Source: Candidatus Cloacimonadales bacterium (GTDB lineage Bacteria > Cloacimonadota > Cloacimonadia > Cloacimonadales > DAONDQ01). From it: 64,000 nt of DNA. Position 1 is the first letter of the stretch. The number at the start of each line of letters is the position of its first letter. The stretch covers positions 1,312,001 to 1,376,000 of the forward strand of contig OY759316.1 of the NCBI GenBank assembly GCA_963662275.1. The letters run 5' to 3'. Below, piece by piece: positions 42,001 to 51,000 of the stretch. Position numbers: made by a program.

Positions 42001-45000
42001 TAGACCACTTTTTCTCTGTCACTACCAATAAGGCTGCGTAAAATGGAGGTTAATTTTGAACAGTCTCGCTACAGATTAACAATTTGCCGGTCAAAAAAGT
42101 CATTGACAACTTCAATTCTCATTCTGATTTGTTACCCTTAAAATAATTATCTTGGAATGAGAAACATAAGTGTTTGGCTATAGTGCTTTTGTGAATGAGA
42201 ATTACTGACTCGACATAAATGAAAAGAAGGGAGTAATGTATGAAGTGTAAAAGGAAGAGAAGCCTTTTCATTTTAGTGGCTTTGATCTCCTTACTGGGTT
42301 TTACCATCGCTGTCAAGGCAAGCAGCGATGATAGCAGTTACGTGGTAAAAAACTTTAAGGTAGTCGATGTTCCCTATGATGATGGCACGGGTCTCCAACT
42401 CAGTTGGAATCCATTACCAAAAGAGAAGCGAATCATTGAATACCGCGTTTATCGTGGTGTTACTCCAGACAGTCTTTTCTTGCTGGGTACAATACCAATT
42501 AATGTGAAAACAGGTGTTGCCGGTGATTCAGTATATTATACTGATAAAGATTTGAATGTCCTGGTGGATATCAGTGCTCCCGGAAGATTAAAGAAAGAGA
42601 AGCAGCAAGGAGCTAAAAGTCCTTTGTACGGAGATGTCCCACGTGATGTTAAAGTACTAAACTCTATCTTCTCTAAGTATAGCTTTTTAAGTATCATTCC
42701 CAAAAAAGACTTCTATTACCGTACGACAAAAACAAATGCACCTGATAAGGCAGATTCAACTACATACGCCGGTTTGAAGATGAGACAGGTAACTTTGCTT
42801 GCCAGTTTAAATCCAAATACGAAGTATTATTATACAGTTGTTGCTTTAGATGAACGACGTGCTTTTCATAAGCATGCCCCTGTTCAATCAGGTATCCCTG
42901 TAGAAAATGCACCGGAACCAGTTCCCAAATTTAGTTCAGTGTATGTGAAAGATACGAATAAGATGCAGTTTGAGTGGGAATTACCCTTGTTCAAGGGTGA
43001 TCTGGCACAATATCAGATTTATGCTGTTCCTGCTTCATCACAAGCAGCCTTCGATGATTTCCGCCTTCATCCCATTCCCCAAACTCAATCTCCAGGTTTG
43101 CCAATTGCTGCCGGACAGATCGACATTGCCAGTTCAGATTCCTATAATATGGCTATTGTTGATATGAATGGAAGATCCCTCAATCCAGATACAATAGATC
43201 AACTTCGATTTGCTATTGGAATCATGGATTATGCTGGGAATGAAGTATTATCTTCGCTGGTTGCCCCAAAAGTCATCCTTTCTTCCCAACTACCTCCCAG
43301 ACCAACTTTTCTAGTGAAAGATAAACCGAATGATAAAGGTGAAATTCTTACACTCACTTGGAATAAACCGGTTGTATATGTGAACCAGACAAATTTCATC
43401 AGTGCTGATCGCAAGAAACTGATGGTTAATTACATGGAAAATGTGAATTCTGAGTTTAAGATAAAAAAACTGGCTTTCGATTTCTATAAGATCAATGATA
43501 CGAAGCCATTTAAGACACATCACGAATATTACCAGGATAACAAGATCATTGTAACACTACCTAAAGATTATAATCCTGAACTCGGATTGAATGTCAGGAT
43601 TAGGATTACATCCGTGCCTGCAGTATCTGATAAGTATGTCTTCACACAAAATCTTGTTTTCAATAAACAGACAAAATCCATGATTCCAGATAAATTGATG
43701 TCGGACGGAAAAGACGTGAACGAATTTTCCTATGTGATTTATAAAAAATTACGCAATTCCCAATCCTACACTCTTTCTAAAAAGCTCAACGGTAATCAAA
43801 ACTCGTTTGATGATAATATCCGTTTTGAAAAGGATATTTACAAACCTGTGGCTTACATGGATAAGAAAACAAACCAGGTATTGGTGAATTCAGATATTGA
43901 CATCACTTATGATAAAAAGGCAAAAGCTGTTGTTCAAACCAGTATTTATGCAAATGAAGCAAAAAAGCTGATGGCTAAACAGAAGAAAAGCTTGGATGAT
44001 AAACTCATTCAATTACGTGCCCAGATTCCCCAGGTCAATGATCCACAGCAATTAGCACAACTACAGGACCAGATTAATAAAACAACCGCCAGGCTGGAAA
44101 TGTTTAATAATCCTATCCTGAAGCAATCACTTACATTTACAGGTGATAGAAGCCGTATGCATTTCGTTTCTGCTAACAGGGAAAGTAATAAGCGCCAGGC
44201 ATCTTATCGGATGATTGTCAGTAATGGTGAAGGCATTTTTACCGAGTCTGATATCACGAAGGACAAAGACGACGAGACAGTTTATTATACACCTGTCGGA
44301 AATTGGTTTGATAAATCGAAAATTCCGATGCTGATAGCTTCAATCGTGTTCGGTTTACTGGTTGCCTTCATGATTCGCAAGGCGAAATTGGGACACGATC
44401 TCTTCATTCGTCCTATTGCCGGTATCCAGGAAATTGATAATGCTATAGGTAGAGCCACGGAAATGGGTAAACCAATCCTGTATTGTCCAGGTCTCGGTGG
44501 TCTTTCTGATGTAGCTACCATAGCTTCATTAGGTATTCTGGGTCAGGTTGCGAAGAAGACTGCTGAATATGATACGAAATTGATCGTTCCATGTTATGAC
44601 TTTATCATGATGCCTGTTGCCCAGGAAATCGTGAGAGAAGCTCATTATGAAGCAGGTCGTCCTGATTCATATGATAAGAACAATGTGTTTTATCTAACGA
44701 ATGTGCAATTTGCGTATGTTGCAGGTGTAAATGGTATTATGATTCGTGAAAACTGTGCTACAAACTTCTATATGGGTATGTTCTATGCAGAGGCTTTGTT
44801 GATGACAGAAACTGGTAATACGATCGGTTCAATTCAAATTGCCGGAACAGATGCTGTTACCCAGATTCCTTTCTTCATAACAACATGCGATTATACACTT
44901 ATTGGAGAAGAATTATATGCTGCTTCAGCGTATTTAGTTAAAGAACCCATGATGTTGGGAACCCTGAAAGCTCAGGATTATTTTAAATTCCTGATTCTGT

Positions 45001-48000: not shown

Positions 48001-51000
48001 TTATAATCATACAAAATTGATCAGGATTGAAGATGATAAGGCATTGGGTGGTTTGGAATTGAGACGTTTTGAATCCATCCTGGCAAATGTGATCCCTGGT
48101 AAGAAATACTATTACACAGTCGTTGCTGTTGATGAGAAGAGAGTACTATCATCCTATGCACCCATTGTATCTGCCATTCCCTATGATAATCCCCCTGAAA
48201 CTGCGATAACATTAACGCCAAGATTCTTCCAAGAAAAAAGACAACTTAATTTCGAATGGACGCTGCCATTAAACAAATCTGATGTAGCAGAATATCGAAT
48301 TTATGCTTTAGAAAAGGCAAGAATACCCCAATTTCAAACATATTTAGAGGAACAGAATCACATTAATTCAATCCTGGAACAACAACAGGTTTATCCTGAA
48401 CAATATAAGACAGTTCCAGACCCTAAATTCACAAATCCCGCTTTCTTGATTGCTAGTAGTCCAAATCCACTTAATCCTATGGCAAATCTGATCATACAAT
48501 TTGACCAGGATGGTAAAATCATTGATGCAGCAAATAAATCCAATGCCTCATTGGATATGAATCGGATGCAGGATTATGTATTTATTTTGAGCTTGCCTGA
48601 TTATTATGGGTTTGAATCCTTTTCTCCATTGTTTCCAGCAAAAATAGGCATTGTTTCAGACCTTCCAACGCTTCCCACTTTTTCTGTAAGAGATAAACCA
48701 AATGATAAGGGTGACATGAATGAATTATCATTTGGAAGACCTATAGCCCTTATTTCCCAGGCTTTTTACAATGCAAAAAAAACAAAAATGACTTTTAATT
48801 ATGATTTTGCTACAAATGCTAATTATAAAATTATCAATGTATTCTTCAAAATATACGACAAAAAAGGCAATTTCCTAGGTTCAGTGAAAGAGTATTATCC
48901 TGATAATATCTTCAAATTCACACTTCCTAAAGGATCACCGGTATCTGATGAATATTTTCTGAAGATCGGGTTCAAATTAAAGGGACCTGAATTGAAGGAG
49001 AATTTCTATATTACGCAGAAGATAATGCTCGATTCTGCCACGAAGAGATTTGCCAATCGTGGATTGTACTTTGATAGAGAAAACCTGAACAGGTTCAATT
49101 ACCTGATTCTTAACAAATCAAAATCTGATCCTGGTTTTCAGCAGGTCAAAAAGCTTTCTACCATCTCACGTGGTTTTGATGACAATATTCCATTCGAAAC
49201 AATCGTGTATAAAGGAATTAACCGTTACGATCCAAAATCGAATACTCTCCTCTTTGATCCTACTTTGGATATTGGATATGATGTGAAACGGGAAATGCCT
49301 GTTTCTGTAAATTTATTTGCTGCTGAGATGAAGAAGTCTCTTCAGAAATGGAATAAACAGGTTGATACTCTCAAAGTAAAATATGCTAAAGCCACAACTG
49401 CTGAAAAGGCTTCCATACAAGATGAGATGGATTATTATCAGAAAATGATTGATTTGGTCACGAATGATCCTGATATCAAGAAATTGAATGCTATCACCGA
49501 CCCAAAAGAAAGGATGAAACTCTTAGCAATTATTCGTGAAACAAATCTTCGTACGTTTTCTTATAGATTGATCAAATCTGATGGAGATGGGAATTTCCTG
49601 ATTTCTGACATCTACAAGAATTCTGCCAGCAATGATTTTTTCTTTCCTATAGCCAACTGGTTTGATAAGACAAAAATTCCTATGATCATAGCTTCCCTGT
49701 TATTTACACTGTTGGTTGTCATCATGGGAATTCGCACGAAGCAGGGAAAGGATCTCTTTATCAGACCTATTGCCGGAATTGATGAAATTGATAATGCCGT
49801 AGGCAGAGCAACTGAAATGGGACGCCCAATCCTTTATGTGCCTGGTCTAAATACGATTGGTGAAATTGCCACGATCGCTTCTATGATCATTCTTGGTCGT
49901 ATTGCCAAAAAAACAGCAGAATACGATACCAGACTATTGGTGCCCAATTGCGACTACTATGTTTTACCTTTAGCGCAGGAAATCGTGAAGGAAGGTCATT
50001 ACGAAGCAGGTCGTCCGGATAGTTATGATCAGAATAATATCTTCTTCATATCAACAGATCAATTTCCTTATGTTGCCGGTGTGAATGGAACTATGATTCG
50101 TGAAAAGACAGCTACCAATTTCTACATGGGTACTTTTTATGCGGAAGCGTTGCTGATGACAGAAACTGGTAATGCAACAGGCGCTATTCAAATCGCAGGT
50201 ACAGATGCTGTAACCCAGATTCCTTTCTTCATTACTACTTGTGATTATACTCTCATTGGTGAAGAATTCTATGCTGCATCTGCTTATTTATCTAAAGATC
50301 CTGAGATTTTAGGTACTTTAAAAGCTCAAGATTATTTCAAATTCGTTATTGTTTTCTTCATTATCCTGGGAACGATACTAACTTCATTACATCTGAATAG
50401 CTTAATCTATTCGTTCCCAACGGAATAAATAACATACTTACATGCAACAAAGGTCATCCGCAAGGATGACCTTTTGTTATGTGGAGTAGGATTCCGATCC
50501 TACTGATTAGAGGTTGAAGTCCAAACTTCCCACAAGATCGCATGTAGATCAAGATTCGAAGGAAGTTTGAACTCCAACGCTCGAGGAATCTGTTTTAGTT
50601 ACTCAGCAAGAACGGCGTCTTGCTTTACGCTACATCTTCAAGTGTTTCTTCAGATATTCTCCGGTGAATGACTTGGGATTCATAGCAACTTCTTCAGGTG
50701 TTCCTTCTGCACAAATTTGACCACCTTCATCTCCACCTTCAGGACCCAGGTCTATTACATAATCAGCACATTTTATCACATCCAGGTTATGTTCAATAAC
50801 GATTACTGTATTACCCATTGAAACAAGACGCTTCAAAACGAGCAGTAACTTCTGGATATCATCGAAATGCAGACCTGTCGTAGGTTCATCAAGAAGATAG
50901 AGAGTATTGCCTGTACTTGGTCTGCTTAATTCACGTGATAGCTTAATACGTTGCGCTTCACCACCGGATAGCGTTGTGGATGACTGTCCAAGTTTGATAT

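Follow-up and report, generated by a model that had tools for sequence, protein, structure and literature searches.

A set of seven genes, designated A, B, C, D, F, G and H, together probably with an eighth, X, very likely constitutes a single functional system in a Candidatus Cloacimonadales bacterium and in several other phyla. We propose that A-B-C-D and G-H form a previously undescribed type of ATP-driven translocase, a prediction to which we assign a probability of about 0.55. Primary pumps are driven by ABC, P-type, rotary or AAA/RecA motors, and we know of no transporter powered by an ATPase of the ASKHA fold; to our knowledge, this would be the first. The literature, searched mostly outside subscription journals, yielded no paper on the system.

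The membrane locus and the genes of the ATPase module

The window (the whole 64,000-nucleotide stretch of contig OY759316.1 that was analysed) carries five ORFs on its forward strand, A1-B-C-D-A2, spaced by 8-61 nt. Coordinates of these genes and of the hairpin described below are window positions; those of F-G-H, the G-H fusion, X and KamDE count along the contig. A1 (944 aa; 42240..45074) and A2 (961 aa; 47543..50428), paralogues with 44% identity, match the DUF6754 profile (PF20539) with E-values of 7.7e-118 and 1.6e-117 (392.7 and 391.6 bits; cut-off 27). They flank B (208 aa; 45083..45709), C (382 aa; 45718..46866) and D (201 aa; 46876..47481), none of which matches a Pfam family over cut-off. 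This arrangement of two DUF6754 proteins around three unannotated membrane genes is the one given in the genome-wide survey's note, although the start of A1, placed there at 42276, is in fact located 36 nt upstream, at 42240, just downstream from a GGGAG sequence. A terminator-like hairpin closes the operon on the same strand (50449..50474; 11 pairs and a T-tail), identified by its match to the consensus only. The hairpin faces a convergent gene of 1004 aa, which its motifs suggest to be uvrA.

A1 comprises a signal/anchor helix, an extracytoplasmic region of about 680 aa with a weak FN3 match, and the C-terminal DUF6754 region. In the latter, two TM helices enclose an alpha/beta domain assigned to the cytoplasm by the positive-inside bias of 67 aligned sequences, 65 of which have Cys206. 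C has the reverse arrangement: topology, fold search and a homologue model predict two TM helices around an extracytoplasmic Rossmann-like domain. B and D are each predicted to have six TM helices, with the N-terminus of B inside and that of D, whose helices form three hairpins, outside. Thus, by lysine/arginine bias, A and C have opposite orientations in the membrane, and so do B and D. Sequence comparison with hhalign detected no homology between A and C (probability 2-8%; an in-register match over a 60-column core had P 0.025 and probability 2%) or between B and D (1%). An internal repeat in D (D1-D2) scored 37%, with an E-value of 4e-4.

The model of a 273-aa C homologue (pLDDT 97) contains a six-stranded Rossmann-like domain. 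Its best fold match had Z 10.4, and the matches were generic, covering many Rossmann folds. The family accepts large inserts, one of them beta-rich (P0169); the C protein of the window has a lineage-specific insert of about 100 aa. The inner core of A is better conserved than the outer core of C (62% versus 43%), and this was so in every pair from 31 loci. In D, polar residues S19, D24, N25, E32, Q117, S153, T182 and R186 (homologue numbering) are invariant. The model of the D monomer (pTM 0.51) shows long helices that do not pack into a compact fold, as expected if D is an obligate subunit, and its fold search returned single-helix matches only. PDB sequence searches with the A, B, G and H profiles gave nothing under E 0.1; the ESM Atlas returned unnamed clusters, or barrel-sandwich labels on less than a third of members, and PADLOC anti-phage profiles matched none of the seven proteins.

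A second locus, on the reverse strand of the contig (4155468-4158855), codes for F (123 aa), G (620 aa) and H (376 aa), and a 961-aa G-H fusion lies at 497346-500231; both are as the survey had described them. Its count of seven genes captured the system (A, B, C, D, F, G, H) but missed a conserved eighth gene, X, found at 2097033-2097470. G and the fusion match PF13941 over cut-off (E 3e-128 and 2.8e-99; 428.8 and 333.4 bits), and the phosphate-1, phosphate-2 and adenosine motifs of the ASKHA fold are intact in both copies. G showed no ABC_tran match. H contains a barrel-sandwich domain (RnfC_N, E 7e-4; NQRA_N, E 4e-3) and a putative swivelling beta/beta/alpha domain with a weak match to RraA (E 0.1).

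Relation of G to the mutase reactivases

With the reactivases GlmL/MutL (NF040745, TIGR01319), Or-4 (NF040744) and PF13941 at large, G shares the ASKHA fold family and the ATP-binding motifs. G differs from GlmL/MutL in its length (about 600 versus 460 aa), an extra C-terminal domain, a fixed partner, H, and linkage to membrane genes in place of mutase genes. It is 28-33% identical to annotated GlmL proteins and falls below the cut-offs of all three NCBIfam models (223.5 against 475 for NF040745, 160.7 against 204.05 for TIGR01319, and 215.8 against 600 for NF040744).

The survey had argued that G is not a mutase reactivase because the genome has no glutamate mutase. The absence of glutamate mutase E was confirmed, but it is insufficient against such a role since the genome has another B12 mutase, the lysine 5,6-aminomutase KamDE (PF09043, E 6e-248, at 291578; B12-binding domain at 293482), which the argument overlooked. 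Its conclusion nevertheless holds on other grounds. In a quick tree, where fused G-H copies appear as long branches, the long G proteins form a clade of their own (SH-aLRT 100; stem 5.6), and it is the short GlmL genes, not long G, that adjoin glmS/glmE or ornithine aminomutase genes. Neither PF09043 nor PF06368 was found in 47 of the 56 genomes with long G (these being the two mutase families tested), and 8 of the remaining 9 have a short GlmL of their own. The separate clade and the genomes free of both mutase families therefore settle the reactivase question in the negative. The idea that G is an ordinary reactivase, serving KamDE, and is linked to membrane genes only incidentally could draw on its PF13941 membership, on its name in public records ('glutamate mutase L') and on the lack of a GlmL gene adjacent to KamDE; it is largely refuted.

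Linkage, co-occurrence and expression

Operon linkage and co-occurrence reinforced the survey's view of the seven genes as a single conserved system. A, B and D adjoin C in all 31 full-flank loci examined, and in 12 of these all seven genes lie within 20 kb; in 19 no G occurs within 10 kb. Around A, in the phylum of genome G062 (labelled Planctomycetota), 10 of 20 loci also hold the full set, as do 13 of the 23 metagenome loci with full flanks around G. Several phyla share the operon with differing gene orders: F-G-H-A-B-C-D in some lineages, A-B-C-D-X-F-G-H in Vulcanimicrobiota. The membrane cassette and the G-H module are unlinked in the source genome; in two genomes of the same order, G001 and G019, a G-H fusion lies about 100 nt upstream of A-B-C-D. 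Two or three A-B-C-D cassettes are present in 20 of 80 loci, with a single F-G-H set where it is in view.

Within the source phylum, DUF6754 and PF13941 occur in the same genomes (56 of 61), a pattern the survey had noted for 26 of 31, the five genomes without both belonging to a single genus. In the phylum of G061 (301 genomes), A is present in 41 of the 42 that have a full-length long G (48 have A in total), and G201, G234, G257 and G142, with short GlmL only, have no A. Draft genomes departed from the pattern in three instances: G-H was found without A or D in G168, and A without G in G086 and G144. The system is about 60% identical across phyla. DUF6754 comprises at least 7,926 clusters at 90% identity and the C family 2,160 at 50%. 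That so widespread a system was overlooked is attributable to the public name of G, a misnomer, and to its absence from the 14 control genomes.

A cultured carrier is Nitrospira moscoviensis, whose operon, NITMOv2_3303-3297, follows pgsA-plsY; the genes were assigned by gene order, protein mass and TM count. All seven genes are transcribed (RPKM 188, 227, 256, 231, 152, 102, 55) and the operon is expressed on mineral medium, with G and H at about 1:1 (normalised counts 3560 and 3592). Nitrite starvation changes expression only 1.05-1.30-fold (PMC9381531, Table S1). Such steady expression, in an autotroph growing on mineral medium, is unlike that of an inducible nutrient importer. The membrane proteome contains A and C (PMC8407350, Table S1). 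Whole cells yielded 42 unique peptides of G and 21 of H, against 0-2 peptides per digest in the membrane proteome, and F is barely detected; any docking of these proteins to the membrane is therefore weak or transient. A search by name in the N. marina proteome supplement (PMC8115632) found no row. Presence and expression in cultured N. moscoviensis make the system directly testable.

A predicted translocase and competing explanations

The survey had spoken of an "envelope machine", a label that explains nothing. In the model that we favour, A-B-C-D would form the membrane core, with 2+6+2+6 helices, and G-H, along with the small F and probably X, a detachable energising module. The core may comprise two oppositely oriented halves, with the Rossmann-like domain of A inside and that of C outside, and with B and D as opposite six-helix bundles; two opposite halves are the usual plan of alternating-access carriers. 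Substrate would be captured by the variable outer domain of C, aided by interchangeable outer domains of A. Docking of G-H on A would then be transient, at the conserved inner domain, with ATP driving a conformational change, in what may be a re-use of the action that reactivases of the GlmL/DdrA type apply to enzyme subunits. The forced change would render the cycle one-directional, most likely inward, and a single G-H module could serve several cassettes. The odds seem roughly even that the system represents a hitherto unknown class of primary active transporters, extending from anaerobic candidate phyla to Nitrospira, with a pseudo-symmetric 16-helix core, Rossmann-like domains on both faces and an actin/Hsp70-fold ATPase, derived from reactivases of B12 enzymes, shared among cassettes.

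Two known systems offer partial parallels. Group II ECF transporters combine a single energising module with several interchangeable membrane cassettes and have six-helix subunits of about 200 aa. The present system resembles them in the size and helix count of B and D and, as a genomic pattern only, in the shared energiser; it differs in having an actin-fold ATPase instead of the ABC-type EcfA/A' and a membrane part of four subunits that has soluble domains on either side. Family searches and the fold search with the D monomer model gave no match. DdrAB, the diol dehydratase reactivase, is an ASKHA ATPase with a swivelling beta/beta/alpha domain that acts on a Rossmann-like subunit, a combination that G and the weakly matched domain of H would repeat in outline. 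DdrAB, however, is a soluble chaperone of a B12 enzyme, with neither a membrane part nor barrel-sandwich domains.

It is conceivable, if rather unlikely, that the system is instead a mechanical or signalling machine of the envelope, in which G-H couples ATP to periplasmic work, or relays a signal, through the outer domains of A. The actin-fold platform proteins PilM, GspL, FtsA and MreB, which G-H would then resemble, work with inner-membrane proteins, but G belongs to the GlmL/hydantoinase branch, and pilus, division and elongation genes are not consistently linked to it. Consistent with a mechanical role are the constancy of expression through growth and starvation, the TonB/ExbBD and outer-membrane genes adjoining loci in WOR-3 and Eisenbacteria, and the outer regions of A, which range from none to more than 900 aa (total length 258-936 aa in 137 ORFs) and carry FN3-like or BamB-like propeller domains. 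The absence of any outer region from some A proteins argues against it, as does the lack of a linked output domain, pilin or regulator; moreover, a pair of six-helix subunits that are oppositely oriented and have invariant polar residues suits a membrane path better than a scaffold. Somewhat less probable is a membrane group-transfer enzyme, with G as a kinase, ligase or reactivase for a cofactor of A, and the Rossmann-like domains passing an acyl, phosphoryl or nucleotide-linked group from the cytoplasm to the outside. G does have invariant His residues and a weak Hydantoinase_A match (E 2e-5) linking it to hydantoinase/oxoprolinase relatives, and lipid or acyl genes (pgsA-plsY, plsX-fabH, cdsA, lipA, lipoate ligase) are direct neighbours in several lineages, but these vary by lineage. 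Among many Rossmann folds, C aligns with the NADP domain of transhydrogenase (Z 7.9, rmsd 3.7, 142 aligned) and with sirtuin (Z 8.5-8.9), both nucleotide-binding folds, but not clearly above background, and H has no conserved carrier residue: its lipoyl-like hairpin carries Lys in 19, Arg in 5, Ser in 3 and Thr in 2 of 29 sequences, and no His or Cys is conserved at 80%. As to a phosphotransferase system, H thus offers no phospho-accepting residue, while Cys206 of A and the invariant His residues of G could be candidates.

A redox complex coupled to ion movement, like Rnf/Nqr or transhydrogenase, is quite improbable. In Rnf and Nqr, two six-helix subunits sit in opposite orientations, and a soluble subunit carries a barrel-sandwich hybrid domain; B and D, an inverted pair of about 200 aa each, and the domain in H recall RnfA/E and RnfC. 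Conserved Cys ligands, however, are absent (none at 80% in B, 77 rows, in D, 81 rows, or in C or H), B and D match no Rnf or Nqr model, and the partner is an ATPase.

For the proposed translocase, neighbouring genes point to no single substrate: a raw listing contains gcv/lipoate, phospholipid, fatty-acid, peptide ABC, peptidase and unrelated housekeeping genes. In our judgement, a peptide-like or envelope-recycling product is a tentative candidate, and a lipid or acyl compound equally so; a cofactor or ion is more doubtful, as is any other substrate. In favour of peptide uptake, two loci (L188, L241) have peptide ABC genes within the operon or next to it, and a few others have peptidases, but equally many lineages carry lipid genes. 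Cobalamin import, considered on account of the GlmL ancestry, found no support: 139 kb of sequence from 7 loci contained no Rfam match. Lipoate scavenging was rejected given that the source genome has LipA, that the cassette is unlinked to gcv and the ligase, and that H has no invariant Lys. Upstream gcv genes, seen in 14 of the 80 metagenome loci, and a downstream lipoate ligase, seen in 17 of the genome loci examined, were treated as lineage synteny.

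A five-gene operon and its partners

The operon occupies the + strand of the window and consists of five genes with little space between them: A1 (42240-45074; 944 aa), B (208 aa), C (382 aa), D (201 aa) and A2 (47543-50428; 961 aa), with a closing hairpin 3' of A2 (50449-50474). A1 and A2 are 44% identical and both end in a DUF6754 domain; no Pfam or NCBIfam profile matched B, C or D over cut-off. Away from this cassette, one run holds the small gene F (123 aa), the PF13941 ATPase gene G (620 aa) and H (376 aa), and the same genome carries an additional copy as a 961-aa G-H fusion. 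Gene calls agree with the operon, separate run and fusion described in the genome-wide survey's note, except that the operon begins at 42240 and not at 42276. The names carried by close homologues assign the genome to Cloacimonadota.

An eighth gene, X, lies immediately 5' of F in many operons (47 ORFs, in three groups) and likely encodes a further subunit. It is solitary in the source genome (contig 2097033-2097470, - strand; 145 aa, two helices and a small soluble domain) and was not found in the Nitrospira loci. G-H fusions occur in most genomes of the phylum. Those of loci L002 (7347-10232) and L098, and the unfused L049 pair, are long branches in the G clade; the L002 fusion and the L049 H stop short of the SH3/KOW-like part at the C-terminus of H.

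Immediately 5' of the operon lies an insertion sequence (40204-42070), bounded by 14-nt inverted repeats and encoding a 480-aa MULE/Mutator-family transposase (40599-42041). Two short tandem arrays at 39800-40174 (3 x 63 nt and 3 x 51 nt) are probably a REP-like genome repeat; similar words recur 3' of H (7300-7460 of locus L001). The segment at 34160-39472, low in GC (32%), encodes a 489-aa sigma-54 activator with an RtcR/CARF-like N-terminus, then a TPR protein of 863 aa and an unknown protein of 404 aa. Large proteins with C-terminal Por secretion tail or FlgD-Ig domains are encoded at 27751-33114 and 56930-59134.

Linkage of the seven genes across phyla

With C alone as the query, 80 loci were recovered from other phyla. 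In all 31 with full flanks C is adjoined by A, B and D, and in 12 of these F-G-H also lies within 20 kb; two or three A-B-C-D cassettes are present in 20 of the 80. In the phylum of genome G062 (Planctomycetota label), where 52 of 201 genomes carry A, the cassette was found in 17 of 20 loci taken around A and all seven genes in 10. Metagenome loci around G contain all seven in 13 of the 23 with full flanks. The gene order is reversed in Vulcanimicrobiota (A-B-C-D-X-F-G-H), so that the link between the modules has outlasted rearrangement, and in two genomes from the same order as the window genome (G001 and G019) a G-H fusion lies about 100 nt 5' of A-B-C-D. Presence and absence are concordant: DUF6754 and PF13941 occur in the same 56 of 61 genomes of the phylum (the five negatives, all in one genus, represent one event), and, of the 42 genomes that encode a full-length long G in a set of 301 from the G061 phylum, 41 also have A. 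These counts do not amount to a statistical test, because related genomes are not independent. In the G061 survey long and short G were told apart by matched span and six partial matches were set aside; the 301 include seven flagged unpublished genomes, none among the positives counted. The 14 control genomes, which lack DUF6754, gave no PF13941 match over cut-off. Linkage, changed orders and matching distribution together support the earlier proposal that the seven genes are one conserved system.

In three planctomycete loci (L169, L171 and L176), possibly one event, A is kept with H, and in two also with G, while B, C and D are missing from the surrounding 10 kb, a hint that coupling is the role of A.

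In the literature searched, DUF6754 and the family accessions are named in no publication, and further searches listed nothing on the system; no solved structural relatives of A, B, G or H were found. We regard the gene system as new; its function we infer.

The ATPase and the B12-mutase reactivases

PF13941 splits into short forms (about 460 aa), next to glutamate mutase or ornithine aminomutase genes, and a long form of about 600 aa. Long G, including both copies of the source genome, is a single clade with an SH-aLRT of 100 in a quick tree built from 72 rows, falls below the GlmL, Or-4 (NF040744) and TIGR01319 cut-offs, and has all ATP-binding motifs intact. Among 56 genomes with long G, PF09043 occurs in 7 and PF06368 in 6, either in 9 and neither in 47; eight of the nine with a tested mutase family have a short GlmL of their own. 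G is very probably not a mutase reactivase, and we give the opposite view almost no weight. The survey's note had reached this conclusion from the missing glutamate mutase. The conclusion is supported by the separate clade and the 47 genomes with neither PF09043 nor PF06368, but that argument fails because the same genome encodes lysine 5,6-aminomutase (kamDE, contig 291563-293934), in whose neighbourhood no GlmL-type gene was found.

Topology, possible mechanism and a cultured host

Lysine/arginine bias across alignments places the soluble domain of A in the cytoplasm and that of C outside; B and D have six helices each, with the N-terminus of B in and that of D out. C is modelled as a six-stranded Rossmann-like domain flanked by two helices (pLDDT 97) with only generic fold matches (best Z 10.4, rmsd 3.4, 140 aligned); the survey's model of A reports the same fold class for its soluble domain. 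D modelled alone is a collection of long helices (pTM 0.51) without a match in a fold search. Sequence homology is undetectable within the A/C and B/D pairs, and 'inverted pairs' therefore describes topology and plan, not proven descent. Over 31 loci the inner A core is 62% conserved, compared with 43% for the outer C core; the outer region of A is interchangeable.

One ATPase module serving duplicated cassettes with opposite halves, a variable outer and a conserved inner domain, makes a primary translocase the simplest reading, inferred at every step. C would catch the substrate, which would pass between B and D. Reactivases act upon enzyme subunits, and G-H may work on A in the same manner, powering the cycle. 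A mechanical or signalling platform seems unlikely, and an enzyme transferring groups across the membrane slightly more so; H has barrel-sandwich domains, with no invariant carrier lysine, and a weakly RraA-like middle part. A redox complex is very improbable; B, C, D and H have no conserved cysteines available for iron-sulfur clusters.

For the translocase reading, gene neighbourhoods do not name a single substrate. Genes for lipids and acyl groups (pgsA-plsY, plsX-fabH, cdsA, lipA, lipoate ligase), for peptide ABC proteins and peptidases, and for housekeeping each occur in few lineages. No riboswitch was found in seven loci searched. About 22 loci (the L013-L050 group), mostly WOR-3/Stahlbacteria/TA06, share a block 3' of D in which DUF4388 and two unknowns are accompanied by a pair of small membrane proteins, ExbB-ExbD-ExbD-TonB-like genes and a TonB-dependent receptor.

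Several metagenome loci fall in Nitrospira clusters; in these, pgsA and plsY are followed by F, G, H, A, B, C, D and a MEMO-like gene. Table S1 of PMC8407350 lists Nitrospira moscoviensis NITMOv2_3307 as pgsA, NITMOv2_3306 as plsY and NITMOv2_3303-3297 as 'uncharacterized' (12.8, 66.0, 39.5, 44.3, 23.6, 30.2 and 27.2 kDa; 0, 0, 0, 2, 6, 1 and 7 predicted helices), fitting F to D by synteny and mass rather than alignment. According to the same table, cells growing on nitrite transcribe all seven, G and H match in abundance, and the membrane proteome contains A and C and hardly any G and H. In a second study, nitrite starvation in mineral medium shifts G, H, A and C by 1.05-1.30-fold (PMC9381531 Table S1). 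The system is thus produced steadily by an aerobic autotroph, with no tie to peptide fermentation. The MEMO-like protein is invariably 3' of D in Nitrospira-type loci (L232, L236, L240, L245, L248 and L259); NITMOv2_3296 corresponds to it in position and size.
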